Shown here: piece after piece, positions 1 through 53,088 of the stretch | Layout: each line of letters starts with the position of its first letter | How positions within the stretch are numbered: position 1 is the first letter of the stretch | The notes under the pieces: model-generated | The model's database searches: none | What the model was told of the DNA's origin: nothing | Seen by the model: only the letters and a program-made list of their open reading frames with translations | Translations under genes and position numbers: made by a program | DNA from: Bacilli bacterium | Lineage (GTDB): Bacteria > Bacillota_I > Bacilli_A > ML615J-28 > CAG-313 | Direction of reading: 5' to 3' | Assembly (NCBI GenBank): GCA_045536365.1 | Contig: JAZSNL010000020.1 | Location: 30,463 to 94,462, forward strand | DNA: 64,000 bases

Positions 1-636
1 AAATTAACTAATTATGATAATATTATATTTGATTTTAACGGAACAATTATTAATGATTTAGATTTATGTATTAATATTTTAAATTATATGTTAGAATCAA
101 AAGGATATAAGAAAGTAACAAAAGAAAGATATTTAGAAATATTTACTTTTCCAATAATAGAATATTATAAACTAGCAGGATTTGATTTTAATAAACATTC
201 ATTTGAAAATCTATCAGTTGAATTTATTAATCTTTATCAAAAAGCAAGTTTAGAATGCTCATTATATGATGGAGTAATTGAATTATTAGAAAAACTAAAA
301 AAGTTGAACAAAAATATAATTTTATTATCTGCTAGTCAATTAGATAATTTAAAAGAACAAGTATATCATTTCAAAATAGACAAATACTTTACAAAAATAT
401 TAGGACTTGATAATATTCTTGCAAAAAGCAAAATTGAAGTAGCAGAAAAATACTTTAAAGAAAAAAATATAGATTTATCAAAAACTATTATTTTAGGTGA
501 TACAATACATGATGCCGAAGTAGCAAATAAATTAAAAATAGATTCTATTTTAATTGCTGATGGACATCAAAGCTATGATAGATTAAAAAAATATAAAAAA
601 GAAGTAATAAGAAACATTAAAGAATTAGAATTATAA
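1..636 (+). CDS. HAD-superfamily hydrolase (5' end probably just upstream of window)
   Basis: Frame 1 is open from nt 1 with no stop before the ORF-track start at 88; N-terminal IIFDFNGT (HAD motif I-like) and ILGDTIHD near C-terminus. Confidence 0.55.
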   Translation, partial: KLTNYDNIIFDFNGTIINDLDLCINILNYMLESKGYKKVTKERYLEIFTFPIIEYYKLAGFDFNKHSFENLSVEFINLYQKASLECSLYDGVIELLEKLKKLNKNIILLSASQLDNLKEQVYHFKIDKYFTKILGLDNILAKSKIEVAEKYFKEKNIDLSKTIILGDTIHDAEVANKLKIDSILIADGHQSYDRLKKYKKEVIRNIKELEL

Positions 637-648
637 AAGAGGTGATAT

Positions 649-2016
649 TTGATGAACATTAAAGATATATATGAATCACAAAAAAGATACTATATGTCTC
701 ATCAAACATTATCATATCAATTTAGAAAAGAAGCTTTAATTAAATTAAGAAAAGCAATAATTCGTCTTCAACCAGAAATTGAAAGAGCATTAAAAGTAGA
801 TCTAGGTAAATCGCCAACAGAATCCTATATGACTGAAATAGGTCAAGTTTTAAATGAAATAACATATAGTTTAAGAAACTTAAAACATTGGATGAAACCT
901 AAAAAAGTAAACAGTGGAATCGCAAACATTGGTGCGAAAAGTTATATAACAAGATATCCATATGGAAATATATTAATATTATCTCCATGGAATTATCCAT
1001 TTTTACTTACAATGTCACCATTAATAGGTTCAATAATTGGAGGAAATACAACAATTATTAAACCTTCAGAAATATCAGTGAATGTTTCAAATATTATAAA
1101 ACAATTAATAGAAGAAATATTTGATACTGAATATATATCTGTAATATTAGGAAATAGTGATACGGCATTAGAATTATTAGATTACAAATATGATTTTATC
1201 TTTTTTACTGGAAGCACAAGAGTAGGTCAAATTGTTTTAAACAAAGCAGCTGCTAATATGACTCCGGTTTGTTTAGAACTCGGAGGTAAATCACCTTGTA
1301 TAGTTACTAAGGATGCAAAAATACATTTAGCAGCAAAAAGAATTATGTTTGGAAAATTATTAAATTCTGGACAAACATGTGTTGCTCCAGATTATCTATA
1401 TGTTGATGAATCTATAAAAGATGAATTAATAAAAGAACTTATTATTTCATCTAAAGAATTATATGGAATGAATCCGTTAATTCATCAAGATTATGGAAAA
1501 ATTATAAATAAAAAACATTATCAAAGACTATTAAAATTATTAGAAAATCAAAAAATAATTTTAGGTGGATTCGGAGATGGAGAAAAAATAGCTCCAACAA
1601 TAGTTGATAATGTTGATTTTGATAATGTATTAATGAAAGAGGAAATATTTGGACCTATTTTACCGATTGTAACTTTTAAAGAATTAAGTGAAGTAGAAGA
1701 AAATTTAATTAATAAACCTATTCCTCTTGCGTTATATTTATTTACAAACAATAATAAAACAAAAAAACAAATTTTAAATAATATACCTTTTGGTGGTGGA
1801 TGTGTTAATGATACGATAATGCATTTATCAAATAAAAATTTACCTTTTGGTGGTGTTGGATCAAGCGGCATGGGAAGATACCACGGTAAAACAACTTTTG
1901 AAACATTTACTGTAACAAAATCAATTTTACAACAAAATAATTTATTTGATATAAAATTAAGATATGCACCATATAATTCAAAAAAAGATGATATTATTAA
2001 AAAAGTTTTAAAATAG
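649..2016 (+). CDS. NAD(P)-dependent aldehyde dehydrogenase (class-3 ALDH family)
   Basis: 455 aa; ELGGKSP catalytic-Glu region, GQTCVAPDY catalytic Cys motif, FGGVGSSGMGRYHG C-terminal ALDH signature. Confidence 0.8.
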   Translation: MMNIKDIYESQKRYYMSHQTLSYQFRKEALIKLRKAIIRLQPEIERALKVDLGKSPTESYMTEIGQVLNEITYSLRNLKHWMKPKKVNSGIANIGAKSYITRYPYGNILILSPWNYPFLLTMSPLIGSIIGGNTTIIKPSEISVNVSNIIKQLIEEIFDTEYISVILGNSDTALELLDYKYDFIFFTGSTRVGQIVLNKAAANMTPVCLELGGKSPCIVTKDAKIHLAAKRIMFGKLLNSGQTCVAPDYLYVDESIKDELIKELIISSKELYGMNPLIHQDYGKIINKKHYQRLLKLLENQKIILGGFGDGEKIAPTIVDNVDFDNVLMKEEIFGPILPIVTFKELSEVEENLINKPIPLALYLFTNNNKTKKQILNNIPFGGGCVNDTIMHLSNKNLPFGGVGSSGMGRYHGKTTFETFTVTKSILQQNNLFDIKLRYAPYNSKKDDIIKKVLK

Positions 2017-2024
2017 GAGAATAT

Positions 2025-2651
2025 ATGTTAGGCGATAATATTAAATTATTAAGAGAAGAGGCTAGATTATCAAGAGCAGAACTTGCGGAAAAAGTGGGAA
2101 TTTCTGAACAAGTTTTAACTGATATCGAAAAAGGTCTTGCAAGACCTAGTGATAGATTACTTGAAAAAATGTGTGTCTATTTAAGAATAAGTCTTGAAGA
2201 TATTAAAACAAGAGATATAGTATCAGAAAGACAAGAAGCATTAAAGAATATGAAAAAGGATAAAACAAGAGGAGATTATAATTGGTATTTAGGAAGTAAA
2301 ACTAAAATAGCTTTTTATATATCATATCTTATTATTATTCCTGCGACATTCTTGTTAACATTATTTTGTTTTTTACTTCCTCAAAAAGAAGTAATGATGG
2401 AATTATTTGAATGGACTGAACAACAAGCAATGTTAGGATGTTTTACTTATGCATATTTATTCTGTGCTTTTCCTACATTAGTATATTTAATTATATTTGT
2501 ATTTAAAAACATAAAAATAAGACTACAATGGTGGATGATATTCTTAGTACAATTTATTATTGGTTTAGCTGGTGCAGCAGCAATAATAGCAGTTATTCCA
2601 GGTATTGTTTATTCTTTATATCAAGTTATAGTGAAACGAGGAAAAAATTAG
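2025..2651 (+). CDS. XRE-family HTH transcriptional regulator with C-terminal multi-pass membrane domain
   Basis: N-terminal LSRAELAEKVGISEQVLTDIEKG helix-turn-helix; C-terminal half has ~4 hydrophobic helices. Confidence 0.6.
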   Translation: MLGDNIKLLREEARLSRAELAEKVGISEQVLTDIEKGLARPSDRLLEKMCVYLRISLEDIKTRDIVSERQEALKNMKKDKTRGDYNWYLGSKTKIAFYISYLIIIPATFLLTLFCFLLPQKEVMMELFEWTEQQAMLGCFTYAYLFCAFPTLVYLIIFVFKNIKIRLQWWMIFLVQFIIGLAGAAAIIAVIPGIVYSLYQVIVKRGKN

Positions 2652-2659
2652 GAGGTTCT

Positions 2660-3532
2660 ATGGAAAAAAATAAAAAACCTATTATTGCATTAATGTATGA
2701 TTTTGATAAAACATTATGTGGTAAAGATATGCAAGATTACAGCTTTATTCCTAGTATTGGAATGAATTCAAGTGAATTTTGGCAAGAAGCTAATAAACTT
2801 GCAACAAAAACAAATATGGATAAGATATTAGCTTATATGTATTTGATGATTAAAACAGCCAAGAAAAATGATGTTCCTATTACAAAAGAAGCATTTACTA
2901 AATTAGGAGAAGAAGTTGTTTTATTAAAAGGTGTTAAAGGATGGTTTGACCGAATTAATGCTTATGGTAAAGTATATGATGTTGAAATAGAACATTATAT
3001 TTTATCATCAGGATTAAGTGAAATAATTGAAGGAACACCTATTGCAAAACATTTTAAACGTATATATGCATGTCAATTTCATTACAATGAAAGAGGCAAT
3101 GCTGACTGGCCTCAACAAGCAGTTAACTATACTACAAAGACACAATTCTTATTTAGAATATCTAAAGGTGTATTAGATGTTATGGATGATGTAACATTAA
3201 ATAGTTCTATTTCAGAAGAAGATAGAAGAATACCATATCATAATATGATATATATTGGAGATGGCCTAACAGATGTACCTTGTATGCGTTTAGTTAAAGA
3301 ACGAGGAGGAGAATCAATTGCTATTTTCCATCGTAATGATAAACGAATAGTTAATAAATTATTAAAAGAAGGAAGAGTAAATTATGCTTGTCCTGCTGAT
3401 TATACAAACGGAAGTATGTTAGATACAGTAGTTAAAAAGATTATTCAAAAAATGGCTATTTCTCAAGAATTAATAAATACACATATAGAACAAATAAAAG
3501 AAATTAATGATGGTGAAGAAAATGAAAAATAA
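2660..3532 (+). CDS. HAD-like hydrolase family protein
   Basis: ATG at 2660 preceded by GGAGG (2651-2655); YDFDKTL (DxDxT motif I) and IGDGLTDVPCM (motif IV-like). ORF-track start 2528 is probably an upstream over-extension. Confidence 0.5.
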   Translation: MEKNKKPIIALMYDFDKTLCGKDMQDYSFIPSIGMNSSEFWQEANKLATKTNMDKILAYMYLMIKTAKKNDVPITKEAFTKLGEEVVLLKGVKGWFDRINAYGKVYDVEIEHYILSSGLSEIIEGTPIAKHFKRIYACQFHYNERGNADWPQQAVNYTTKTQFLFRISKGVLDVMDDVTLNSSISEEDRRIPYHNMIYIGDGLTDVPCMRLVKERGGESIAIFHRNDKRIVNKLLKEGRVNYACPADYTNGSMLDTVVKKIIQKMAISQELINTHIEQIKEINDGEENEK

Positions 3533-3839
3533 AGTAATTCATTTTATCTTAACAATTTCTTATGTTACTATTTCATTAATAGGTATGGTTTTATTTCCAA
3601 TATTTTCAAATAAAGAATGGGTTGGTACATATTTAATTGTTTTACTTGTCTTTTTAGTATTTGGTTTTTTGGGATTAGTATTATATCATTCATTAATATC
3701 TAAATATAAATGTCCTCATTGTCAACATGAATTTAGAATAAATTTCTTTAAGGATTTAATTACATTAGGATCTAACAAAGGAAAAAATGTTGTTTGTCCT
3801 AATTGTAAAAATAAAAATTATATAAATAGGATTAATTAA
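3507..3839 (+). CDS. small membrane protein with C-terminal Cys4 zinc-ribbon
   Basis: 2 predicted TM helices then CPHCQHEF...CPNCKNK. Confidence 0.4.
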   Translation: MMVKKMKNKVIHFILTISYVTISLIGMVLFPIFSNKEWVGTYLIVLLVFLVFGFLGLVLYHSLISKYKCPHCQHEFRINFFKDLITLGSNKGKNVVCPNCKNKNYINRIN

Positions 3840-38874: not shown

Positions 38875-41800
38875 ATGAAGAAAATTTTTATTATAATATT
38901 AGTTATATCGCTAATATTAAACAGTATTCCGTTTGCACCACTAGGAAAATTACTAGCAGCGGAATCAAATTCAATTGAGGAAACAATAGTTTCAAATAAT
39001 ATGGAGGGTTCAGATGAAATTGAATATGAAATTGAATCATTAAGAGAACCTAATTTAAAAGTATTTAAAAGAAAAGATGGATTAATAGAATATAACTATT
39101 ATGAAGAAAATGTTCATTATTTAGAAGATGGTATATATAAAGAATATGATGTTTCTTTTAATGAATCAAATAGTTCGTATTCTAATACTGTAAATGGATA
39201 TGAAGTAGTGCTTCCCAAGAATTTAAAAAAGTCTAATATTATATTAAGACATCAAGAGGATGTTTTGAAAATAAAATATTTAAGTAATACTTCAAGTAAT
39301 TCCTCATCTAAAAAAATAAAAGAAGAAAAAGAAAATAAAAAAGATGTAATTACTACAAAGTCTAAAGTAGAATATAAAAATGTTTTAAAACATTCAATTA
39401 TTGAATTAATCCATACACCTACAGGATTAAAAGAAAATATTATATTAGAAAAGTATGTTAAAAATTATAGTTTTAGTTATATAATTGAAACTAGTTTAAA
39501 ATTAGTAAATGAAAATGATACTTTATATTTTTATAATGATTATGAAAAAGAAATATTTAGATTTAATCCTTATAATATTGTAGATAGTCAAAATAGGATA
39601 TCATATGATGTAGAGTTAAATATATCAATTACAGAAGAAGGTTACTTAGTAGATGTTATACCAAGTGATGAAGTATTAAAAGAATTTACTTATCCAATAA
39701 CAATTGATCCAGTAATTGAATATTCGAGTTCTACAATAGCCAGCAATATAAAAACTAAGTATTTCAGAAAAAATTTCAATGGAACAACACCAGGAATTAA
39801 AATAGAAAAATATGTTAATACTTTCCAAAATGCAGATGGTACATTTGGTAGTGAAGATATTTCTACTCTTACCATAATGGAGATAGATGAAGATATATTG
39901 GATGATAATCTTAATGTAGACACAATTAAATTTGCAAAATTAAAATTTAGGATTAAATCTTCAACACAGGATAATTCATATGATATAGCTGTAAATAGAA
40001 TAACGAGATTCTATGTTGGTGATGTGCCTTTTATTTCATATCCATATGATAATATAGATGGATACACAAATTATGAAACAAAGTCGATAGGAACTATGAA
40101 AAGAGTTGAAAACGCGTATGAACTCGATTTAACAAATGTAATCAAAGAAACAAAACATAACACAATGGTGTTAGAACTTACTGCAAAAAACATACCTAAT
40201 AATGAAGAAAATGTTATTTTATATGATTCTTCTTATACAGATAATAGTCAGAGACCTATGTTAACAATAGCATATATGGACAGCATGGGATTAATTGACT
40301 TTTTAACTTATCATACAGTAACATCAGGTAATACAACAGCTTACGTAAATGATTGTTTTGGTAATTTGGTCGTTGAACAAACTGATTATTTATCAAATTC
40401 AGAAAAAATATCATTTGATATAAGTCATTATTATAATATATCTTCTTCTACTACATCGGATTATGATGTAGGATATGGAAGAGGTATGACTTTAAGTTAC
40501 CTTGAAAGGGTTGTTCCAGAAACGTTAAATACTGAATATTATTCTGTTATTGAATCAACAGGTAGAAAAAAGTATTATAAAAAAGGAGCTATTACTCAAA
40601 ATGGATTTACCTATGTTAGTGAAGAGGGAGATGATGAATACTTAATAGTAAATTTAGCATCTTCAGTACCATATAAAAAAGTCATTCAAGAAAAATATGC
40701 GTATTGTTATGATAATGAAGGATATTTAGTAAAAATAATGGAACGCTTTACTCTGACTACTTTTATAGAGATCACTTATAAAACTACAACATATAGGGGT
40801 AATAAATTAATAGATGAAATAAAGGATTCTTCTAATAACTACGCAAAATTTATATATGAAAATAATCACTTATCAAAGATTCAAATATATAAAGCTACAT
40901 ACGAAGGAGAAAATGTTATAGGATATGAAATATCACAAACTAATAAATATGAATATGATAGTTCATTTAGAATGATAAAAACTTTATATTATAAAGGAAA
41001 TGAAGAAATTCTATTAGGTAAAGAAGAATATGAATACAATACAACAGATGATACATTATTAAAAATAGAGAGTTATAATTATAATGGAACTGAATATATT
41101 TTCATATCAAATATGGAGTTTTTATATTTAAATGAACAAGTAGTAGAATATTCTTCTCTTTTAGGTAGTAACAAAGAAAATGAAACTACTATGAAGATGT
41201 ATATTGAGTATGGAGATAGAACAACTACATTCACTAATAGCCTGGGACAAAGCACAAAATATTTATTTGATTATTTCGGACATACAAAAACAGTAATTGA
41301 TAATTATGGTAATACAACACATTATAAATATGCAAATTACAATAATGAACTATATAAGGATAATCCAAATTATGTTTTGAAACATCAAATTGAGGAAGTA
41401 TCAAGTCCTGTGAATTTAGGTTATAATTTAATTGATAATCATTCATTTGAAGAAGGAGAAAACCATTGGAATATATATTCTGGGGATATAGTGTATACTT
41501 CTGCATATGGATTAAAAGCATTGAAAGTAGATTTATCAAATAGTAATGAGAATACCGTTACAGCAAACCAAAAAATTAGTGTACAGACAAATAAAGTATA
41601 TACCCTTACCGCATTTATTAAAGGAAGCGGTGATATTTTGATAGTATCAGATAATGAAAATTATACTGTTTCCCAAAGCGAGTTGACTGAAACTACTGAT
41701 GATTATTTTTTATATAAAAAAACATTTAGTGTAAGCAGCATAGATCCAGATGAAGAATATGCAGAAGTGTATATTAATTTATGTACAAAAGAAACAGATC

Positions 41801-44800
41801 AATTTTCTGAACAAGTATACTTTGATCAAATAATGATAGATAAAAATAATATTGATACAATATACAATATGTTAATTAATCCATCGTTTGAAGAAAACAA
41901 TAGTTGGAGTGGAGGACAAAGGATATTAAGAACTTCTGACCAATCAATGTTTGGTAATTATGAAATGAAAGTGAGTGGTAACTCAATAGTTCATCAAGAA
42001 TTTGATGGTGTTCATATTCTAAAAGATACAACTATTACCATAGGTGGATTTGTAAGAACAAATGGAACAAGTGTACGTTTAAGAGTGCAATTTTTGAATT
42101 CAGAAACAGGATCAATGTCTAATTCATATGTAGTTCAATTTTACCCATATTTAACAGATTATCAATTTAATCTAAGTGAGTTTTCAGTAGAAGATGAATT
42201 TAGTACTGAATATTATGATGTCGTTTTCTTTGATATTATTAATACGGGAGAAATTGATTGTTATGTTGATAATTTAATATTAACATATGATTTATATGAA
42301 ATAAAATATGAATATAATGAACTTGGTTATCAAACTAAAAGCATATATGGTTCTTCAGTTACGTCAATAGAATATAAGAGTGATAATAGAACACCGGTAA
42401 AAATAACAAAAGATAATAAAGAATTATCATTAGATATACAAACATTCTCTACATCAATAGAATTTGATAATGTTAATATAACTGAAAATAAAAACTCATA
42501 TAATCAAGTAACATCTACTATAATAAATGATAAGCAAGTTAGTGAGACAGAATACGGTTATAATAATCAATATGTTACTTCACAAACAATTATCGGCAAT
42601 ATAGTAGAATATTCTTATGATTATTTATATGGTCTTTTGAACTCTGTTGAATATTCTGATGGTAATACCATTCAATATCAATATGATGATTACAATAGAT
42701 TATTACAAACAAGTTTCACTAAAGGAAAAATTAGTTATTTATATGATGATTATGGTAATATTGAAAAAATAGAAATACTAGGACAACTTGGCAATATATT
42801 AATGAGTTATTATTTTGAATATAATGAACATTTTGATATAGAAACTATATATGTAGGAAAAGATACAAATAAAGATAGAATCATTAAATATGAATATTTG
42901 TATTTAACATTATCAAATGGTAATGAAGTATATACTGGATTAATTAATAAAGTTATTAAAGGAAATAATGATGATAATTATGAAAGATACGAATACGATA
43001 AAGAATTTAATTTATATAAAACATATATTAAAAAGCCAAATATAGAAGAAACATTAATATCAGAGTTGTTATATGATAATTACAAGAATTTATCATTTTA
43101 TAAAGATTATGTTGATAACAAAATATATATGTATAATTATGATAAAGAGAATAGATTAATAAGTTGTCTTGATGAAAAAGGTAATGGTGTAAAATATCAA
43201 TATTTAACAATAGACAGTGACCAAAAAGAAAAAGTAATAGTTGAATATATTGTTGATAATACTGTTTTAACGACTATGACGTTTATATATAAAGAAGATG
43301 AATTAATAGAATATTTGACAAATGATATAAAGTCAAATCCTCAAGCAATTATTGACGATTATGATAGAGTGACTGAAAAACTATTAACCACAACGGATAA
43401 TAATGAATTGATAAAATATATTTATCAATACAATGAAGACAAAATCAGTCAATTAGATGGTTATGAAATAAAAATAGGTAATGATACATTAAAATATGGA
43501 TATTCATATGACATATATGGAAATATAATTCAAATAATAAAATATAAAAATAATGTAGAATTTGAAAAAATAGAATATCAATATAATAATAATCAAGAGC
43601 TATTACAAGAAAAAATTACAAGAAATAATGTAATAGTATTAGTAACAAATTATACATATAATACTATAGGTAACATAACATCAATAACAAGAACTACAAA
43701 ACAAGGAGAATATAGTAATTTACCATATAAAATCGAATTTATGTATGATACTAATGTTAGAATGAAATTATTATACTATAGAGTATATTTACATGGTTCT
43801 TTATCTTATACAACATACAACATTACATATGATGAATTTGGAAATATAAGACATGATGGTAAAAACTTGTTTATATATGATATAGATAAACTTATAAATA
43901 TTCAAAATGATAATAATAATATAATTTATGATTATAATAGTGATGGAGTACGCATCTATAAAAAAATAATAAATTTAGATGACACATATGAAGAAGTACA
44001 TTATGATGTATCAGGAGATATCATTTTAAAAGAAACAAGATATGATTCTTCAACAAACACAACAACATATATAATATATATTTATGATGAATCAGGAGTA
44101 GTAGGATTCAAAGTAGGAACAGATATAAATAACTTAACAACATACTATTTTGTAAAAAATCTCCAAAATGATATAATACAAATTATTGACACAAATGAAA
44201 ATGTTGTGGTAGAATATACTTATGATGCGTATGGCAATGTATTTGTATCAGGAACATTATCAAATACAATAGGAAAACTTAATCCATATAGATACAGAGG
44301 GTATTATTATGATGAGGAAACTCAGCTTTATTGGGTATCCTCAAGGTATTATTCACCAGAATTATGTAGATTTATAAGTCCTGATGATGTAGAATATCTA
44401 GATCCAGAATCATTAAATGGATTAAACTTATACTGCTATTGTGTGAACAATCCTATTATGTATATTGATCCTTATGGAAATGATGCAATTTTAATAACTG
44501 AATATTTACCAATGGGGTTACCTATTGTAGGTCACTCTGTTTTATTCGTTCAAGATGAAAATGGAGAATGGTGGATTACTGAATATTCAGGTTCTTTTCC
44601 TGATAAGAGTACTGCTCATGTTATTTGTAGAAAAGCTACACAGTCGGATTGGGAAAGATTTAAGCCGCAAAAAGGGTTTTGGAACTCTATTAAAAATCTG
44701 TTTCAAATTTCAGGGAATTCATCAGTTTATTTAAAAGGTGATTATTCTAACAGTTTAAGTAAAGCACAAAGCTTAAATGGTTTGGATTTTGGTGGATATC

Positions 44801-45006
44801 ACGCATTTACAAATAATTGCTTGCATTACGTTAAATCGATTTTAAGTGAAACAAATATTGATTCAGTTACGAATAATTATTTTAAGAATTCAAAAATTTT
44901 TATTCCATGCATGTTTACAAATATGACTACATTATGTAGTGTGATTGATGATGTAATTGATACTGGAAATAAAGTTTATAATTTTATAAAAGGTATTTTC
45001 AACTAA
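38875..45006 (+). CDS. Sec-secreted RHS/YD-repeat polymorphic toxin (WapA-like), 2043 aa, with variable C-terminal toxin domain
   Basis: N-terminal signal peptide; two CBM4/9-like beta-sandwich regions (~41.4-42.3 kb); many YD repeats (YEYDSSFRMIKT, YSYDYLYGLLNSVEYSDGNTIQYQYDDYNRL, YTYDAYGNV); RHS core end RYRGYYYDEETQLYWVSSRYYSPELCRFISPDDVEYLDPESLNGLNLYCYCVNNPIMYIDPYGN; ~175-aa C-terminal tip. Confidence 0.85.
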   Translation: MKKIFIIILVISLILNSIPFAPLGKLLAAESNSIEETIVSNNMEGSDEIEYEIESLREPNLKVFKRKDGLIEYNYYEENVHYLEDGIYKEYDVSFNESNSSYSNTVNGYEVVLPKNLKKSNIILRHQEDVLKIKYLSNTSSNSSSKKIKEEKENKKDVITTKSKVEYKNVLKHSIIELIHTPTGLKENIILEKYVKNYSFSYIIETSLKLVNENDTLYFYNDYEKEIFRFNPYNIVDSQNRISYDVELNISITEEGYLVDVIPSDEVLKEFTYPITIDPVIEYSSSTIASNIKTKYFRKNFNGTTPGIKIEKYVNTFQNADGTFGSEDISTLTIMEIDEDILDDNLNVDTIKFAKLKFRIKSSTQDNSYDIAVNRITRFYVGDVPFISYPYDNIDGYTNYETKSIGTMKRVENAYELDLTNVIKETKHNTMVLELTAKNIPNNEENVILYDSSYTDNSQRPMLTIAYMDSMGLIDFLTYHTVTSGNTTAYVNDCFGNLVVEQTDYLSNSEKISFDISHYYNISSSTTSDYDVGYGRGMTLSYLERVVPETLNTEYYSVIESTGRKKYYKKGAITQNGFTYVSEEGDDEYLIVNLASSVPYKKVIQEKYAYCYDNEGYLVKIMERFTLTTFIEITYKTTTYRGNKLIDEIKDSSNNYAKFIYENNHLSKIQIYKATYEGENVIGYEISQTNKYEYDSSFRMIKTLYYKGNEEILLGKEEYEYNTTDDTLLKIESYNYNGTEYIFISNMEFLYLNEQVVEYSSLLGSNKENETTMKMYIEYGDRTTTFTNSLGQSTKYLFDYFGHTKTVIDNYGNTTHYKYANYNNELYKDNPNYVLKHQIEEVSSPVNLGYNLIDNHSFEEGENHWNIYSGDIVYTSAYGLKALKVDLSNSNENTVTANQKISVQTNKVYTLTAFIKGSGDILIVSDNENYTVSQSELTETTDDYFLYKKTFSVSSIDPDEEYAEVYINLCTKETDQFSEQVYFDQIMIDKNNIDTIYNMLINPSFEENNSWSGGQRILRTSDQSMFGNYEMKVSGNSIVHQEFDGVHILKDTTITIGGFVRTNGTSVRLRVQFLNSETGSMSNSYVVQFYPYLTDYQFNLSEFSVEDEFSTEYYDVVFFDIINTGEIDCYVDNLILTYDLYEIKYEYNELGYQTKSIYGSSVTSIEYKSDNRTPVKITKDNKELSLDIQTFSTSIEFDNVNITENKNSYNQVTSTIINDKQVSETEYGYNNQYVTSQTIIGNIVEYSYDYLYGLLNSVEYSDGNTIQYQYDDYNRLLQTSFTKGKISYLYDDYGNIEKIEILGQLGNILMSYYFEYNEHFDIETIYVGKDTNKDRIIKYEYLYLTLSNGNEVYTGLINKVIKGNNDDNYERYEYDKEFNLYKTYIKKPNIEETLISELLYDNYKNLSFYKDYVDNKIYMYNYDKENRLISCLDEKGNGVKYQYLTIDSDQKEKVIVEYIVDNTVLTTMTFIYKEDELIEYLTNDIKSNPQAIIDDYDRVTEKLLTTTDNNELIKYIYQYNEDKISQLDGYEIKIGNDTLKYGYSYDIYGNIIQIIKYKNNVEFEKIEYQYNNNQELLQEKITRNNVIVLVTNYTYNTIGNITSITRTTKQGEYSNLPYKIEFMYDTNVRMKLLYYRVYLHGSLSYTTYNITYDEFGNIRHDGKNLFIYDIDKLINIQNDNNNIIYDYNSDGVRIYKKIINLDDTYEEVHYDVSGDIILKETRYDSSTNTTTYIIYIYDESGVVGFKVGTDINNLTTYYFVKNLQNDIIQIIDTNENVVVEYTYDAYGNVFVSGTLSNTIGKLNPYRYRGYYYDEETQLYWVSSRYYSPELCRFISPDDVEYLDPESLNGLNLYCYCVNNPIMYIDPYGNDAILITEYLPMGLPIVGHSVLFVQDENGEWWITEYSGSFPDKSTAHVICRKATQSDWERFKPQKGFWNSIKNLFQISGNSSVYLKGDYSNSLSKAQSLNGLDFGGYHAFTNNCLHYVKSILSETNIDSVTNNYFKNSKIFIPCMFTNMTTLCSVIDDVIDTGNKVYNFIKGIFN
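44236..44440 (+). repeat. RHS core-end repeat (copy in full-length gene)
   Basis: ~205 nt nearly identical to 47375..47580; weaker copies at 45822..45990, 48851..49012, 51962..52013. Confidence 0.7.
44479..45003 (+). other. C-terminal toxin tip: permuted papain-fold (NlpC/P60 superfamily, PPPDE/LRAT-like) candidate domain
   Basis: His-containing VGHSVLFVQDENGEWWITEYSGS followed ~100 aa later by YHAFTNNCLHYV (cf. NC[NE]HF of PPPDE/LRAT). Confidence 0.35.
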
Positions 45007-45676: not shown

Positions 45677-45813
45677 AAAATATAAATAGTTAGTTAAAAG
45701 TAGGCCGGTAAAGATGGTTATCTCTAATAGCCACCTTACAGGCTACCTAACTAGTTATTTTAGACATTATTTTATAAATTTATTATGTCTGAATATTTAG
45801 GACACCATTCGAT

Positions 45814-46392
45814 ATGATGTTGAAACTCAGCTTTTTTTGGGTATCCTCACGTTACTATTCGCCTGAATTATGTAGGTTTATAAGTCTTGATGATATTGAA
45901 TATTTAGATCCAGAATCAGTAAATGGATTGAACTTATGCAGCTATTGTGTGAACAACCCTGTTATGTATGTTGATAGTTCAGGAAATTTTCCTGTTATAG
46001 CATTTATTATAGGCGGAATTGCTGTAGGAGCGGTTGCTTCGGTTATTGTGGTTCTAGGAGTGAAAAATTGTACTTCTAAAAAAAATCCATTAAAAGAAAA
46101 TGATAAAATAAAAAATTCAGAAGGTAAAAAAAAGGATGATTTATTGGCGGATTTTTCTGATACAATTATGCCTGAATATAATCCAAAAGGTATGGCTAAT
46201 AATATTAATACCATTATAACGAATGATATAGTAAACTATCCAGCTAATTCATTGCCTATACAACCCTATGGAGCTGGAGGTTACGAAATCCCTAATGGTG
46301 ATTATAGTAGGTATAGCGGTGGAAGAGCTTTCTTTGATTCAACTTACGAAGAAGATTTATTTGATGTTATATTAAGTCTAAACATATGGTGA
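45814..46392 (+). CDS. orphan RHS C-terminal toxin cassette 1 (core-end remnant + alternative tip with TM helix)
   Basis: WVSSRYYSPELCRFISLDDIEYLDPESVNGLNLCSYCVNNPVMYVDSSGN is homologous at nt and aa level to 44331..44476; own ATG; 1-nt indel versus parental frame upstream. Confidence 0.6.
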   Translation: MMLKLSFFWVSSRYYSPELCRFISLDDIEYLDPESVNGLNLCSYCVNNPVMYVDSSGNFPVIAFIIGGIAVGAVASVIVVLGVKNCTSKKNPLKENDKIKNSEGKKKDDLLADFSDTIMPEYNPKGMANNINTIITNDIVNYPANSLPIQPYGAGGYEIPNGDYSRYSGGRAFFDSTYEEDLFDVILSLNIW

Positions 46393-46446
46393 TAAACATT
46401 CAAGTTTTCACTATGTTATAATTAGCCTATAGAAAAGGAGTAAAAT

Positions 46447-47337
46447 ATGAAAAAAAGATTCTTAATGATAATCATGATACTGTTAATAATATCATGTTCT
46501 GGATGTGAAAATAAGAAATTAGATTTAGAAACACTATATGAAAAAAATGCTAAAGTAGCAACAAGTTATTTTCCAGGATGGGGTGCAGATGATTATAAGT
46601 GCGAATTATTTATCTTCGAACCTGAAAATGCTACTGATTTTGAACTTGGACTTTGTTCTCCATATAATTTAGATGGTGTAGAAAAAGTTCTATATGTTAA
46701 GTATGAAAGAACTGATGAGATTCCATTTGTTGTTGCTTTACAATATAAATCAGTTAGACTTGCAAAAGAAGCCTATGAATTATATGGTTCGCAAAAATAT
46801 TTGCGAGAAGCAAATATTTTAGCACTTCCGATTACTCCTGCGTATATGTTTATATATGGACGCTATATAAAAGTTGATGGATATTATTTAAGTCCTGATG
46901 GTGAAGCTTTATTATATGATGGTCAAACACTAACAAGAACTGATATCGTCATACCAGAAGGTGTAAAATGTGTAGTAATGTGGAGTTTATTTTCAAAGAA
47001 AGTTAAAACTATTAAATGTAATGATGAGTTAGAGGTTTTATATTGTTGTTCGCTTGGTTATCTTGATGCACTAGAAAAAGTAGAATTAAATGATGGATTA
47101 AAAGAAATTGGCGGAGAGTGCTTTATCATGCATAATTTAGAATATATCGTTATTCCAAAAAGCGTTGAGTTAATTGGTGCTGAAGCATTTCAAAATGTAA
47201 CGATTTATTGTGAAATAGAGGAAAAACCTATAGGATGGCATAAAAATTTTGCAGGAGAAAATTGTAAAGTCTATTGGGGAGGAACATGGAAATATGTAGA
47301 TGGAATTCCTCGACCAAACAGATGGATAGAAAGATAA
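46447..47337 (+). CDS. lipoprotein with BspA-type leucine-rich repeats (LRR_5); putative immunity protein for cassette 1
   Basis: Lipobox ISCSGC; repeats LEKVELNDGLKEIGGECF / LEYIVIPKSVELIGAEAF. Confidence 0.5.
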   Translation: MKKRFLMIIMILLIISCSGCENKKLDLETLYEKNAKVATSYFPGWGADDYKCELFIFEPENATDFELGLCSPYNLDGVEKVLYVKYERTDEIPFVVALQYKSVRLAKEAYELYGSQKYLREANILALPITPAYMFIYGRYIKVDGYYLSPDGEALLYDGQTLTRTDIVIPEGVKCVVMWSLFSKKVKTIKCNDELEVLYCCSLGYLDALEKVELNDGLKEIGGECFIMHNLEYIVIPKSVELIGAEAFQNVTIYCEIEEKPIGWHKNFAGENCKVYWGGTWKYVDGIPRPNRWIER

Positions 47338-47374: not shown

Positions 47375-47580
47375 AATGTATTTATATCAGGAACATTATC
47401 AAATACAATAGGAAAACTTAATCCATATAGATACAGAGGGTATTATTATGATGAGGAAACTCAGCTTTATTGGTTATCCTCAAGGTATTATTCACCAGAA
47501 TTATGTAGATTTATAAGTCCTGATGATGTAAGTTATCTTGATCCAGAAAGTATCAATGGATTGAACTTATATGTGTACTG
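47375..47580 (+). repeat. RHS core-end repeat (orphan cassette 2 copy)
   Basis: see 44236..44440. Confidence 0.7.
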
Positions 47581-48136
47581 TGGAAATGATCCCGTTAATA
47601 AGTATGATCCTAGCGGGCATAGTGCAATTTTAGCTAATTTAATTGCGAAGGGAATTTTAGCTATAGATACAATTGCAGAAACTGCTATATTGATGAATTC
47701 AGACAAATATAAAGCTGAGAATGTTTATCATGTTAATCCATCAACTGGTGAGGGAAATGTACATATTCCTAATTCTGCTGCATTTAATAACCCAATAGCT
47801 CAATTAATTTATTCTAATTATCTATATGAAAATGTAAAGAATAAAGATGGAAGCAATTTTTTTACAGGTGATCCTTATGATATTGTTGGTGAATGGCAAG
47901 CACATAATTTTGCGGCTAATTTAACAGGTTCATTAATGGTATTGAGTTTTATTCCTTTAGCATCATTATCAAATGGAGATTATTTTTGGTCAAAATTATA
48001 TAACGCACACAGTAGAAGTGTTCATACTGATATAGGTCCAAATATAGACTCTGAAAAAAGAGGAATAGTTAGAGTTGTATCAAAGATTTATAAATGGATT
48101 AATAAAATTAAAAGCTTTGATATTCTTAATTGGTAA
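47378..48136 (+). CDS. orphan RHS C-terminal toxin cassette 2 (no ATG; in-frame homology from 47378, ORF-track start 47561)
   Basis: VFISGTLSNTIGKLNPYRYRGYYYDEETQLYWLSSRYYSPELCRFISPDDVSYLDPESINGLNLYVYCGNDPVNKYDPSGH; nt 47375-47580 nearly identical to 44236-44440. Confidence 0.6.
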   Translation, partial: VFISGTLSNTIGKLNPYRYRGYYYDEETQLYWLSSRYYSPELCRFISPDDVSYLDPESINGLNLYVYCGNDPVNKYDPSGHSAILANLIAKGILAIDTIAETAILMNSDKYKAENVYHVNPSTGEGNVHIPNSAAFNNPIAQLIYSNYLYENVKNKDGSNFFTGDPYDIVGEWQAHNFAANLTGSLMVLSFIPLASLSNGDYFWSKLYNAHSRSVHTDIGPNIDSEKRGIVRVVSKIYKWINKIKSFDILNW

Positions 48137-48162
48137 TTGTATATTAAAGGAGTAGGGATCAT

Positions 48163-48702
48163 ATGAAAAAAATAAAGTTAATTGCATTATTAATTTTTTC
48201 TGGATTTATAGTTACATTGATATTCGGATTTTTAATCGATATTGATTACTCAAAAAACGTCATAAAAACAAGTGATAAATCGCTTTATGAGATGAATGAA
48301 TATTATTTTTTACCTAACTATAATGAATTTGAATATAAAGAAAATGTTACCGGGTTTTACACATATGATTCCTCTAATACACTTTCTGGAGGAAGTGTTT
48401 CTTATGTATTAGAATTACAATTTGCAACTAAAAAAGTCTATAATGAATTTTTAGAATATGAGTACACAAGATATGAATATGATAGTAATTCAATCATTTT
48501 AAAAAATAATTATGAATGTTATTTGTGTTTGAATGAAGATATTACTCAATATTATTATGGTGAATATATGCCGTATGCGTTAGGAATGTTATGTTTAAAT
48601 GAAAAAGATATAAAAATTAGATATGTATACTATGTTAATATAGAACATTCCATAGATAATAAATTTAATGATGTATTTCAAAATACAAATTGTACTTGGT
48701 GA
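48163..48702 (+). CDS. membrane-anchored/exported protein; putative immunity protein for cassette 2
   Basis: N-terminal TM/signal anchor; follows cassette 2 by 27 nt with AGGAG RBS. Confidence 0.45.
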   Translation: MKKIKLIALLIFSGFIVTLIFGFLIDIDYSKNVIKTSDKSLYEMNEYYFLPNYNEFEYKENVTGFYTYDSSNTLSGGSVSYVLELQFATKKVYNEFLEYEYTRYEYDSNSIILKNNYECYLCLNEDITQYYYGEYMPYALGMLCLNEKDIKIRYVYYVNIEHSIDNKFNDVFQNTNCTW

Positions 48703-48850
48703 ACGTATTGATTTTAGAAAGAGCATAGGGAGAATATTATTTTATAATATTTCTCCGAGTGCTTAATTATGTAAATTGGATACCAATTTCATTACTAACA
48801 TATTATAATTAGGATATAGTTATTATGAGGATACTCGTAATAGCCCTGTT

Positions 48851-49498
48851 GAAACTCAGTTATTCTATTGCAACTCTAGATATTATTCACCTGAACTTTG
48901 TAGGTTCATAAGTCCAGATAGTATTGAGTATTTAGATCCTGAAAGTATCAATGGATTGAACTTATATGCGTACTGTGGAAATGATCCCGTTAATAAGTAT
49001 GATCCTACAGGTCACATCGCGATTAGTACAATTATTGGAATAATTCTTGGTATAGGTGCTTTGGCGGCAACCGCTAATGATATTTATCAAATTGCAAGTG
49101 GAAATGTGTATGTAGATATGAATAAAACAGATAATGAAAATGTTCATATTGAAAATTCCTATAAAATACTAACCCCTTGGATGAGATATGGTTATAGTTT
49201 CTATTTGAATCATTTTAATCCTAATACTAAAGATGTTATTCAGGGAAGTACAGCAGGAGTTCAATTTGAATGGGAATTGCATAATTATGCTGCTTGGCTG
49301 GGTTTTGGTGGAGAGCCAGCTAAACATCTTGATGTTGGAAAAACTATATTTGCGGATGGGGAAGCTCATCCATTAAGGGATAAAGATGGTGATATCACAA
49401 AAGAAGGTGTGATGTCACTAGGAATGAGGATAGGTTATATTTTATCAGGTAACCCTATATATTGGATTCCGGATTTAATTATAAATGGAGGATTTTAA
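48851..49498 (+). CDS. orphan RHS C-terminal toxin cassette 3 (no ATG; frame open from 48809, ORF-track start 48956)
   Basis: ETQLFYCNSRYYSPELCRFISPDSIEYLDPESINGLNLYAYCGNDPVNKYDPTGH then unique ~160-aa tip; 48956-49012 almost identical to 47556-47612. Confidence 0.6.
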   Translation, partial: ETQLFYCNSRYYSPELCRFISPDSIEYLDPESINGLNLYAYCGNDPVNKYDPTGHIAISTIIGIILGIGALAATANDIYQIASGNVYVDMNKTDNENVHIENSYKILTPWMRYGYSFYLNHFNPNTKDVIQGSTAGVQFEWELHNYAAWLGFGGEPAKHLDVGKTIFADGEAHPLRDKDGDITKEGVMSLGMRIGYILSGNPIYWIPDLIINGGF

Positions 49499-49625
49499 AA
49501 TGAAAAAGATATGCGTATTACTTTTAACAATATTAACTTTGCTTTTAACTTCCTGTGGAGAAGACACAACACGATTAGCAAAAGATGAATTTTCGAAATA
49601 TTATAATGGAAGAAATGAAGTTGTT
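49412..49625 (+). repeat. toxin-3 tail/imm-3 start repeat; second copy at 50893..51100
   Basis: ~85-90 % identical over ~210 nt including RBS and lipoprotein signal peptide coding. Confidence 0.65.
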
Positions 49626-50357
49626 TTAAATTATTTAGATAATCTTTACTTTGAAAATTATATCCTTAGTTTAAGTGATTTGATAGAAAAGAGTGAATTT
49701 AATAATGGTTTGATTATAAAACAAGATAAATTCTTTTTTTCAACCTCTACAGAAAATTCAATGTATGATTTCACTTTAAATATTTATGAGGCAAATTTAC
49801 AAGGCACGAATGTAAAAATGATTTTTTCCAAAGATGGGTATAAAACTCATCCTTGGGTCTATGCTATTGATGAAATGTTTTATGTGGAATTTTATTCAAA
49901 TAATGCTTTTGATTTAAAAAGTAAATTAATTGATAAATATACAATATCTACAAGAATTTATGAGAATGTTGCTAGTGGAGAGGATTGTTCTTTATCTGAC
50001 TATTTTCAAAGTGACTCTCAAAGTAGATACAGTATTGAAGTAGTAGAAAACATATCTCCTCAAGAACATGGTGAATTTATTATTACTGACTTAGAAAATG
50101 GAATAACTAATATTATAGATGATGATTACTTAAAAGATACGATTTATATTGAGTCTATGGAAAAATTTAATTATAGTCCAATGAGATTTGATATATCAAA
50201 TGACAAGATTTTATTAACATATGGAATAGGTGCAGGAGATGGATGGAATAATGCGCATTTGATATTTGAATATGATTTTAATTCGAATAAATTAAAATAT
50301 CAATTACTTGCATTTCCAGATGATTTGATGAATGTAAAAATTATATACATTGGTTAA
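49499..50357 (+). CDS. lipoprotein; putative immunity protein for cassette 3
   Basis: ATG 49499 6 nt after GGAGGA lying in the toxin's last codons; lipobox LLTSCG. Confidence 0.5.
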
Positions 50358-50807
50358 ATTTTAAATTCTCGTGTACTAATAAAAACCAAACAAAACTCAA
50401 AATATTTGACATTCAAGAGAAAAAGTAATAGAACCAAAGTTATTTTGGTAAAACAATTGCTTTTGATTTTTATAATATAGATGAAGTAATATTGTTTGAG
50501 AATATTATTAATTAATATTACTTTTAGGAGACACTTGGATACGAAGATGATTATTACAAACATAATTAATAATTTTGTAGACTAATATAAAAAATATCAT
50601 TATTAACAAGGGTGGAACTGAGTAATATCAGTTTCATCCTTTCTTACATTTAGTGGGAAAGAAGCGAAACCTAGGTATTCTAGTTGTCGCAATAGTCGAA
50701 AATGCAATTTGTTGCATTTTCCTTATCCTGCCTCTAAAATAAGCAAATTTTCAACACTTTTGAGTTAGATATTTAAATTTAATATTTTTGTTTTTAGTTG
50801 ATTAATT

Positions 50808-50836
50808 TTGTATTAATATAAAAAATGTGGTATAAT
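50808..50836 (+). promoter_or_regulatory. extended -10 promoter, followed by perfect 9-4-9 palindrome (50849..50870)
   Basis: TTGTAT-17-TGgTATAAT; palindrome TAATTATCC-ACAA-GGATAATTA lies just downstream of the predicted start. Confidence 0.45.
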
Positions 50837-50881
50837 CATTATGTGAAATAATTATCCACAAGGATAATTAAGATTATGACG

Positions 50882-50975
50882 TCGAGTAATGTCATTAGAA
50901 TGAGGATAGCTTATATTAGGTTTGGTAACCCTATGTTTTGGATTCCGGATTTAATTGTGAATGGAGGATTTTAAA
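50882..50975 (+). pseudogene. internally deleted remnant of a cassette-3-type toxin (only last ~25 codons retained)
   Basis: ...MRIAYIRFGNPMFWIPDLIVNGGF* matches the tail of 48851..49498; 5' junction fused directly to this tail. Confidence 0.55.
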
Positions 50976-51818
50976 TTGAAGAAGATATGCCTATTATTTT
51001 TAACAATATTAACTTTGCTTTTAACTTCTTGTAGATAAGATACAACGCAATTAGCAAAAGATGAGTTTTCGAAATATTATAATGGGAAAGACGAAGTTGT
51101 CTTAAATATTGAAGACAATCTTTATTTTGAAAATCATATTTTAGAGAGTGAAAGTTTAAAAAATTCATATGGTTCTATAGTTTTTCACGAAAACTTAATT
51201 TATTATGTATCAATTAATAGTTTAAAGAAAAAATATAGAAATGAATTTATAAACATTTATACCTGTGATTGCTATGGCGAAAATACAAATATTATTTATT
51301 CAAAAGAGATAAATACAAATAGTAATATTACATTAAAAACAAATAAAGACTCTTATTATATTGAATACAAAAAAGAAAAGTTGATTTATATTGATAAATA
51401 CACAATATCAACAGGAATTTACGAAAATATTGCTAGTGGCAAAGATTGTAGTCTATCTGATTATATGCCAAAAGAAGAACAAAGCAGATATAGTATTGAA
51501 GTAATAGAAAATATATCACCTCAAAAACACGGAAAATTTATTGTCACTGATTTAGAAACAGGTTTATCTAATATAATAGATGATGAATATTTAAGGAACA
51601 CAATATATATTGAGTCTATGGAGAAGTTTAATTATAGTCCTAAAAGAGTTGATATATCTAACGGACATATTTTATTAACATATGGAATAGGTGCAGGAGA
51701 TGGATGGAACTATCCACATTTAGTTTTTGAATATGATTTTGATTCAAATACATTGGAATACAAATTATTAGCATTTCCATTTGATAGCGTGCCTATAGAG
51801 ATTATCTATATTGGTTAA
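50976..51818 (+). pseudogene. paralog of immunity lipoprotein 49499..50357 inactivated by a single nonsense codon (TAA 51036..51038)
   Basis: LKKICLLFLTILTLLLTSCR*; frame then stays open to 51818 and is ~70 % identical in its C-half to imm-3 (ORF-track piece 51381..51818). Confidence 0.6.
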
Positions 51819-51961
51819 AAAGTCGATATTATAGAAACAGGATAAGAGTTGTGCTCAAATTTTGGGTACAACTCTGATTCCGCAAATGGGATACCCATTT
51901 CAAGTTTATAAGAATGAAGAAGCAATATTATCTATATATTTGTTAGTTAATATTTAAGGAT

Positions 51962-52070
51962 AACCAAGATTATGACGGCGAAACTCAGTTATTTTATTGC
52001 AACTCTAGATATTATTCGCCTGAATTATGCATATGGATTTACCATTTTCTCTGCGGGAGGCAATTTGGGT
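51962..52070 (+). repeat. fourth RHS core/toxin junction remnant (truncated after ~30 codons)
   Basis: GAAACTCAGTTATTTTATTGCAACTCTAGATATTATTCGCCTGAATTATGC = ETQLFYCNSRYYSPELC, then stop; same junction sequence as cassette 3. Confidence 0.55.
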
Positions 52071-52337
52071 AGAAAAGATTGGTATTTAGACGAGAGTAAA
52101 GAAAGATCGATATATTTTAGTGGTTTTAATTTAGAGGTTTCTATAGAAATATCAGAAGATATGAAAAGTGAAAAGGATTTGTTTAGTGTGGCTTGCAGTA
52201 TTTTTAAATTTGGATATGATGGAAAATTTATTGATTTTAACATAGCTTTAGGTCTTACACAAGAATATATTAATATTGATATTGTTGCTATTATTCGAGA
52301 GATAGAAGACGTTTTAAAAAATGGGAGAAGAGTATAA
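51972..52337 (+). CDS. hypothetical ORF (+1 frame relative to RHS remnant); possible orphan immunity/cargo gene or spurious
   Basis: 121-aa ORF overlapping the junction remnant in a different frame. Confidence 0.25.
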   Translation: MTAKLSYFIATLDIIRLNYAYGFTIFSAGGNLGRKDWYLDESKERSIYFSGFNLEVSIEISEDMKSEKDLFSVACSIFKFGYDGKFIDFNIALGLTQEYINIDIVAIIREIEDVLKNGRRV

Positions 52338-52655
52338 GTGGTAAATAATAAGGAAATAAGATTACGTATAGAACTAGGTATATTAAAAAAAAGATATTGC
52401 GCATTATGCGGGTTAAAACTTAACAGAAAAATTATATGTATAGATCAGATATATGTATATAGACCCTTTTGCCTACCTTTTTTAAAAGAGAAAAAAGCGA
52501 AGAGGATAGTTGTTACTCCGGTATATTATTGTAGAAAATGCAACTATATGATAGATTATGATTCGCAAAAAAAAATATCAATTAAACAAAAAGAGAGCAA
52601 TTCTTATATTTTGTTAGAAGGTAACAATTTAATTAAAAAATTAAAAATAAAATAA
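52338..52655 (+). CDS. Cys-rich (CxxC x2) small basic protein, island cargo
   Basis: CALCG...CRKCNY zinc-ribbon-like. Confidence 0.35.
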   Translation: MVNNKEIRLRIELGILKKRYCALCGLKLNRKIICIDQIYVYRPFCLPFLKEKKAKRIVVTPVYYCRKCNYMIDYDSQKKISIKQKESNSYILLEGNNLIKKLKIK

Positions 52656-52909: not shown

Positions 52910-53088
52910 AATTTTTAATAAGATGAGATTATGATGTTGACATATAAATTTATTGGTTATGATGTTCATAAAGTTTTTATTATTATGAATGTAACATAGG
53001 TATCTTATTAGTTATTAAAAACAAAAAGGTAATTTAGTAGGTATTACAAAATATAAAAAAGTGTTTAGTGAATATTCACTAAACACTT

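Follow-up and report, generated by a model that had tools for sequence, protein, structure and literature searches.

Background

In Bacillus subtilis the WapA/WapI system provides a Gram-positive example of a Sec-exported YD-repeat toxin with a polymorphic C-terminus. Orphan rhs-CT/rhsI modules reportedly occur downstream of full-length rhs genes in Salmonella, Dickeya and E. coli, as described by Koskiniemi and colleagues in 2013/2014, and Bacteroidales are said, following the work of Ross and colleagues in 2019, to carry acquired interbacterial defence (AID) systems, islands with orphan immunity genes. Depending on the strain, an rhs tip may be found as a full-length gene, an orphan or a pseudogene (bioRxiv 10.1101/2025.05.08.652813), and in T7SS loci tandem immunity paralogues recombine with one another (PMC9484751).

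The locus described here lies in a stretch of 64,000 nt of bacterial DNA, referred to below as the window. As with the orphan rhs-CT/rhsI modules, an array of 5'-truncated tips, each with a core piece and an immunity gene, stands 3' of a complete rhs gene and its content is strain-variable. Unlike those modules, it belongs to an Anaeroplasma-like host, the Rhs protein has a Sec signal, there is no T6SS context and neither the toxin nor the immunity family is matched in Pfam or the PDB; furthermore, in cassette 4 the toxin has been deleted and the immunity gene is a pseudogene. The likeness to WapA/WapI is one of layout: a large YD/Rhs protein with an N-terminal signal peptide, in which a variable tip comes after the core, and an immunity gene next to it. 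Unlike in WapA/WapI, the immunity proteins of the present locus are lipoproteins, which points to an extracytoplasmic toxin target. With the AID systems and the T7SS immunity paralogues the locus shares a toxin-less immunity gene under purifying selection and mosaic, recombining alleles; unlike in the AID systems, it is a single gene within an Rhs orphan array, with no dedicated immunity island, and it is now inactivated.

This work concerns cassette 4, which very probably is a decayed, non-functional fourth orphan module of this WapA-like, Sec-signal Rhs polymorphic-toxin locus, formed by a toxin deletion and then a nonsense codon in the immunity gene. The initial annotation had proposed a decayed fourth cassette with its toxin cut to a tail by deletion and its immunity gene disabled by a single nonsense codon, and both the proposal and its coordinates were confirmed.

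Results and discussion

The rhs locus and its cassette array

The full-length rhs gene (38875..45006) stands upstream of cassette 4 and encodes a protein of 2043 aa with a signal-like N-terminus and YD-type repeats recognized by eye. The Rhs-associated core (Rhs_assc_core, TIGR03696, NCBIfam) was found at residues 1783-1868 with E 1.2e-19 and 70.6 bits against a cutoff of 32.5, and Pfam gave no match on this protein, RHS_repeat included. On its 3' side the rhs gene has its own small gene, beyond which short pairs of toxin tip and immunity gene are lined up (Table 1). A copy of the 3' sequence of the rhs core opens each tip, as seen in a 66-nt repeat family at 45812, 47445, 48840 and 51969, and Rhs_assc_core was also matched in the N-termini of the orphan toxins (NCBIfam). 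Rhs loci that carry orphan modules are typically arranged in this way. The G+C content of the window is approximately 26 %, the relatives of the cassette proteins come from MAGs labelled Anaeroplasma, Erysipelotrichaceae or Bacilli, and the host is an Anaeroplasma-like low-G+C gut bacterium.

Table 1 Features of the cassette array and of cassette 4 (window positions)
Feature	Position	Strand	Evidence or remarks
Cassette 1	toxin 45814..46392, immunity 46447..47337		
Cassette 2	toxin 47561..48136, immunity 48163..48702		
Cassette 3	toxin 48956..49498, immunity 49500..50357		
Cassette-3 3' trailer, non-coding	50358..50607	+	within block 48874..50696 = L015 3984..5803, 94.6 % identical
Terminator-like hairpin	50608..50641 (entry 50608..50651)	+	T-rich tail; terminator scan
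Cassette leader	50647..50871	+	homologue lies immediately 5' of intact tox-3-like cassettes in L015-L021
Two adjacent leader hairpins	~50664..50692 and 50698..50719	+	second is a perfect 9-4-9 palindrome; palindrome count, alignment A6
Promoter-like site	50808..50836	+	TTGTAT 50808..50813, 17-nt spacer with TG 50828..50829, TATAAT 50831..50836
Perfect 9-4-9 palindrome	50849..50870	+	TAATTATCC ACAA GGATAATTA; right arm overlaps conserved cassette-boundary motif
Rhs core-homology start remnant	50872..50886	+	GATTATGACGTCGAG (D Y D V E), 15 nt; identical to L015 3949..3963
Chance 32-codon ORF	50876..50974	+	ATG inside GATTATGAC; only residues from MRI... onward (last 24 codons) match toxin
Toxin tail	50887..50974	+	last 88 nt of tox-3-like gene, stop 50972..50974; 1-nt deletion GG>G at 50898
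RBS and start codon	GGAGG 50963..50967, TTG 50976..50978	+	intact; identical in L006, L007 and L001
Immunity lipoprotein pseudogene (imm-4 type)	50976..51818	+	signal peptide and lipobox LTSC, Cys codon 51030..51032; translation
Premature stop TAA	51036..51038	+	from CAA (Gln) through a single C>T transition; second codon past lipobox Cys

The loci used for comparison are numbered (L001, L006 and so on). Two of them, L009 and L011, belong to the same species (flanking genes 98.5 % identical) and are without window positions 38905..44135, i.e. most of the Rhs body, and 47510..52531, i.e. cassettes 2-5; they retain cassette 1 and the end of the array. Unless they result from assembly collapse, these absences are large strain-level presence/absence variation and direct evidence of turnover, and they bear out the cassette turnover proposed initially.

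Cassette 5 (51956..52337) is decayed too: the boundary motif and the core homology (DYDGETQLFYCNSRYYSPELC, 51968..52030) are followed by unrelated sequence. For its out-of-frame 121-aa ORF (51972..52337) no homologue but itself was found among 5.8 billion proteins, and an exact look-up gave no encoding contig. In L006 the corresponding position is occupied by genes for an intact toxin of 220 aa and a lipoprotein of 203 aa. A further relic of the boundary/core-start motif marks where the array ends (52928..52960, GATTATGATG...), of which L009 (11340..11400) has a fuller copy (AAGGATAATCAAAATTATGATG) together with approximately 150 nt missing from the window. In orphan 1 (45814..46392) an extra T in the run after GAAACTCAGC shifts an ATG into the reading frame of core fragment and toxin; this module could therefore be translated alone as a 192-aa protein, and L006 1237..1899 is arranged likewise.

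The immunity gene of cassette 4 and its nonsense codon

The frame entered from ATG 50961 or TTG 50976 reads ...LLLTSCR* and, as initially described, stays open past the stop, with 259 sense codons up to the TAA at 51816..51818. In MKKICLLFLTILTLLLTSC the lipobox was read by eye, LTSC fitting [LVI][ASTVI][GAS]C. The premature TAA had been placed within the signal peptide; the codon is where it was said to be, but it lies just after the signal peptide and lipobox, as the second codon of the mature lipoprotein. The next in-frame ATG, GTG or TTG past the stop is at 51381, 114 codons downstream. The view of the frame as start-less had to be abandoned, as intact relatives have the very same GGAGG and TTG (50976 in the window); the TTG is thus no defect.

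A search with the repaired imm-4 protein returned 244 relatives, among them the intact full-length P0001 and P0002 (95 % identical) and the partial P0004 (98 %), whose DNA is in L006, L024 and L008. Four intact relatives (L001, L006, L007 and L008) were aligned as DNA at the stop site and all read AGACAAGAT (TGT AGA CAA GAT), the same being true of L024. At the protein level Arg-Gln followed the lipobox Cys in 88 of the 120 best matches, and Gly-Glu in only 6 of these 120. The lesion is therefore a single C>T change and the Arg codon is ancestral; the relatives read AGA CAA, which replaces the earlier derivation of AGA TAA from GGA GAA. With one nonsense codon in an otherwise intact frame, a single reversion would restore the immunity gene, as had been suggested.

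The pattern of substitutions was evaluated by the Nei-Gojobori method. The dN/dS of the window copy was 0.06 against L008 (21 synonymous and 6 non-synonymous differences) and 0.12 against L006, and between intact pairs it was 0.14-0.16. By this measure the window copy shows no relaxation of constraint, and the nonsense mutation is therefore either very recent relative to a synonymous divergence of approximately 0.15, or an error. Compared with its intact orthologues, the gene is best regarded as a recent pseudogene with a premature stop and without accumulated secondary lesions. A fault in the assembly or consensus, or a minority allele, could also account for the single T at 51036.

Two forms of the immunity lipoprotein

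The regions 49300..50420 (cassette 3) and 50780..51880 (cassette 4) align, as the initial annotation had anticipated. The deduced imm-3 and imm-4 proteins are 61 % identical overall, and this identity is unevenly distributed: residues 1-61 and about 141-285 are about 80-85 % identical, whereas the central ~80 residues are unrelated. The L001 immunity gene (577..1434) combines imm-4-like flanks with an imm-3-like centre and is thus a mosaic. Since the N- and C-terminal parts are conserved, the centre is unrelated and L001 is mixed, the immunity lipoproteins form a family of recombining mosaics; their hypervariable middle, of which at least two unrelated forms exist, is presumably the specificity region.

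In L024 an imm-4-type gene stands directly 3' of a complete orphan toxin that is tox-3-like throughout. The same tox-3-like/imm-4 pairing was found in L006 and L007, where the 5' part of the toxin gene is cut by the contig end (L006) or by a recombinase gene (L007). The description of the cassette 4 gene as a diverged imm-3 paralogue is thus correct as to relatedness and too simple as to class: imm-4 is a distinct allele class with its own central region, and intact copies of this class, 95-98 % identical, exist elsewhere paired with intact tox-3-like toxins. The 285-aa form of imm-3, equivalent to the TTG-started form of imm-4, corresponds to a record from the NCBI source contig, and an exact look-up of imm-3 in two start variants returned no encoding contigs. 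The L015-L022 loci carry a homologue of imm-3 that is 90+% identical.

The recombinase of L007 (7843..9477) is a 544-aa large serine recombinase with Resolvase, Recombinase and Zn_ribbon_recom domains. It ends immediately 5' of the tox-3-like orphan toxin, whose N-terminal coding sequence is cut at this point, which suggests insertion of a mobile element into the cassette.

The toxin remnant and the deletion junction

In L015 the core start GATTATGACGTCGAG runs on as ACTTCGTTATTTTGG... (ETSLFW LSSRYY); together with its continuation ACTTCGTTATTTTGGTTATCCTCAAGGTATTATTCA it forms the rhs core piece, translated as D Y D V E T S L F W L S S R Y Y S. In the window GATTATGACGTCGAG is followed instead by TAATGTCATTAG..., which is the beginning of the last 88 nt of the toxin gene. 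The core start is joined to this tail via GAG, so the direct fusion reported initially was verified. The GAG at 50884..50886 is common to both sides of the junction and constitutes a 3-nt microhomology, and in blastn comparisons homology to the intact toxin loci L001, L004, L005, L006, L007 and L024 starts exactly at 50884 (for L006, 50884..51995 = 140..1260 with 94.3 % identity). The junction sequence GATTATGACG is the start of the Rhs core-homology segment (DYD.E..); it is also found at 51956..51981 (family D13) and upstream of the intact L015 cassettes, and a related copy of the core start begins at 51968.

The DNA missing at the junction amounts to at least ~0.55 kb (~553 nt in L015 coordinates), and the DPxGH/L cleavage motif and about 150 toxin residues are absent from cassette 4. 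The 15-nt core remnant left at GATTATGACGTCGAG is too short to serve as homology for recombination. The remnant had been described as the last ~25 toxin codons. That only a tail is left is correct, and its length needed adjustment: approximately 29 codons' worth is kept, of which only the last 24 are in the toxin frame because a G is missing at 50898 (TTAGGAATG > TTAGAATG in the alignment with intact toxin genes). The junction and this 1-nt deletion together produce the chance ORF of 32 codons in the frame of the tail, for which an exact look-up gave no product on record and no encoding contig.

In exact metagenome scans, the deletion junction, and the palindrome plus junction, gave zero matches; with no second contig carrying the same junction, the order and age of the events could not be dated directly. 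Relative to L006 the toxin tail has 8 substitutions and 1 indel in 91 nt (8.8 %), and the immunity gene 32 differences in 843 nt (3.8 %; Fisher p = 0.048). The intact loci L006 and L007 showed the opposite trend between themselves, the tail being more conserved than the immunity gene. At three of the eight sites that differ, the tail agrees with cassette 3, which may reflect recombination rather than drift. The excess of changes in the tail hints faintly that the toxin may have been lost earlier and the immunity gene retained as an orphan by selection.

The leader of cassette 4

Cassettes 3 and 4 are separated by a spacer that begins with the cassette-3 trailer and shares its sequence with L015 as far as 50696; 50647..50886 corresponds to L015 3725..3963 with 91 % identity (blastn). 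In the alignment, read by eye and comprising two distinct sequences, both stems of the leader hairpins at 50664..50719 are kept in L015 despite substitutions.

The leader had been credited with an intact strong promoter of the consensus extended -10 type. The element TGgTATAAT is present at 50828..50836, but the upstream TTGTAT matches TTGACA at only 3 of 6 positions, and the -10 motif is not rare: TGNTATAAT occurs 21 times in the window compared with 14 ± 4.7 in Markov simulations, being common in such AT-rich DNA. Approximately 55 nt including the promoter-like site are identical in the L015, L017 and L021 leaders, against 91 % identity for the leader as a whole; by a rough calculation an identical run of this length has a chance probability of about 0.1. 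This identity is suggestive only, and the site is a plausible candidate promoter. A second copy of TGNTATAAT was noticed at 46414..46422, within the 3' end region of the orphan-1 toxin, with TAAACA 18 nt upstream. The immunity gene begins ~25 nt further on, at 46447, and this site may be an internal promoter for it.

The perfect 9-4-9 palindrome reported at 50849..50870 is present in the window, and its counterpart in the L015, L017 and L021 leaders, TAATTGTCC ACAA GGATAATCA, is imperfect. The two differences fall in different base pairs, so covariation lends the palindrome no support, and its interpretation as a conserved operator was dropped. As RNA the palindrome is predicted to form a hairpin, and the fold of 50843..50990 was not unusual (z = -0.81). 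A search of Rfam with 50300..51100 gave nothing at E <= 1; the leader is therefore neither a known RNA nor an intron remnant.

An empty group II intron target was recognized between 50646 and 50647 (50642..50656), 5 nt after the hairpin at 50608..50641. In L015 an intron (1843..3724; Rfam RF02001, RF01998 and RF00029, with an RT/maturase ORF) is located exactly between the homologues of these two positions, with the boundaries TCTTA/GTGTG...CGAT/CATTTAGTGG, and by gene content L016-L019 and L021 have an intron at the same site. The leader could be dismissed as a possible 3'-terminal part of a group II intron, as the L015 intron ends at 3724, exactly where the homology to the window begins. Group IIC introns target sites downstream of intrinsic terminators (PMC1702495). 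The intron of L015-L019 and L021 likewise lies 5 nt past a terminator-like hairpin, a position typical of this class; the window, in contrast, carries only the empty, uninterrupted site.

Predicted properties of the toxin and immunity proteins

The toxin belongs to a small family, with about 70 relatives that span the domain, all of orphan size. Residues I65, S68, G97, E105, W106, H109 and N110 are invariant and include an EWxxHN motif. The cassette-2 toxin (47561..48136) is a distant member of the family of the cassette-3 toxin (48956..49498), and an N-terminal hydrophobic helix is common to both. In the AlphaFold model of the toxin (pLDDT 86) a long N-terminal helix, probably membrane-spanning, is followed by a mainly helical domain, for which Foldseek found no fold match in the PDB. 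The model of the immunity protein P0001 (pLDDT 87) consists mainly of beta strands and matched beta-propellers (Kelch, TolB, YWTD) with E down to 4e-6 at TM-scores of only 0.25-0.3.

Pfam and NCBIfam recognized no family beyond Rhs_assc_core in the toxin and immunity proteins, and PDB sequence searches with both were empty. We infer the toxin and immunity functions solely from gene order and family context. As the immunity factor is a lipoprotein and the toxin is predicted to be membrane-anchored, the pair may act at the outer face of the membrane.

Origin and decay of cassette 4

An intact module of this kind would comprise a leader with a promoter-like sequence, a short rhs core piece giving homology for recombination into the main rhs gene, a toxin domain and an overlapping immunity gene. 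Its toxin would be a membrane-anchored domain of ~180 residues with the EWxxHN motif and no known fold, and the beta-propeller-like lipoprotein would presumably neutralise it at the outer face of the membrane. In the proposed course of events, an illegitimate deletion via the GAG microhomology fused the initial 15 nt of the core piece with the final 88 nt of the toxin gene and left a toxin-less immunity module. The immunity gene then evolved under strong purifying selection, consistent with an orphan protecting against the toxins of neighbours, until the single CAA>TAA change turned codon 2 of the mature lipoprotein into a stop. Translation started at the TTG now ends after 20 codons, and no exported immunity protein is possible because of this early stop and the distance to the next in-frame start. 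The deletion, its junction, the nonsense codon with its ancestral state and the signature of selection are directly evident from the sequences; the order of events is inferred.

The deletion need not have been confined to one toxin gene. L024, with an intact imm-4-type cassette, has a different upstream region and L015, with the leader seen here, has an imm-3-type immunity gene; cassette 4 is thus a composite of an L015-type leader and an L006/L024-type tail and immunity gene, and the lesion may have spanned more than one toxin gene or followed recombination between cassettes. In a less probable history, though one to be taken seriously, a more extensive deletion or recombination eliminated at least one whole cassette, so that an L015/tox-3-type leader came to stand before the tail of another cassette farther downstream, of L006/L024 type. 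It would account for the match of 50647..50886 to loci with imm-3-type immunity genes, for the 94-95 % identity of the tail and immunity gene to L006/L024 while the L024 upstream region is unrelated, and for the mixture of L006-type and cassette-3-type sites in the tail. On the other hand, the hypothetical ancestral locus with several cassettes was not found, and leaders and bodies are generally shuffled, as in the L001 mosaic, so that the leader may well have belonged to an imm-4-type cassette; the lesion would then be a ~0.55-kb deletion within a single cassette in which these parts were already combined. It is also conceivable, with a probability well below even, that the cassettes are mobile, self-contained transcription units, each made of a terminator, a leader with a conserved promoter and two hairpins, a toxin and an immunity gene; cassette 4 would then be a toxin-less, self-promoted immunity unit kept as a defence, with a stop that is very recent or polymorphic.

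The status of the stop codon itself allows two further readings. Should it stem from faulty sequencing or assembly, or be a minority variant, the strain would carry an intact toxin-less immunity gene, expressed and protective. The gene has no other lesion and a dN/dS of 0.06-0.12 against intact relatives, its start codon, RBS and lipobox are intact and the leader with its promoter-like stretch is conserved, all of which fits such an error. Long-read assembly errors are usually indels, and a high-coverage consensus is unlikely to give a clean substitution. The change at 51036 is a clean substitution in non-repetitive sequence, and the neighbouring toxin tail and cassette 5 are decayed too, so decay is expected here; the error is accordingly judged improbable. 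That the interrupted gene is still useful, through re-initiation at TTG 51381 to give a 145-aa C-terminal fragment or through read-through of the TAA, is hardly credible. The downstream frame is indeed open for 259 codons, but recent inactivation explains this, and no start codon is available over the first 114 of them. Moreover, the product started at 51381 would be without a signal peptide, lipid anchor and about half of the predicted beta-rich domain, and an exact look-up of this 145-aa ORF gave no record and no encoding contig. The reading of cassette 4 as a decayed orphan module, with loss of the toxin followed by a genuine nonsense mutation, is hence the preferred one.

Conclusions

The decay of cassette 4 is of a known kind and represents ordinary turnover of an array, and it leaves the understanding of Rhs orphan systems unchanged. 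The case illustrates how an Rhs orphan array may erode, with the toxin going first by a microhomology deletion and the immunity gene persisting until a point mutation inactivates it. It also places arrays of this kind, whose toxin and lipoprotein-immunity families are uncharacterised, on record for Anaeroplasma-like gut bacteria.
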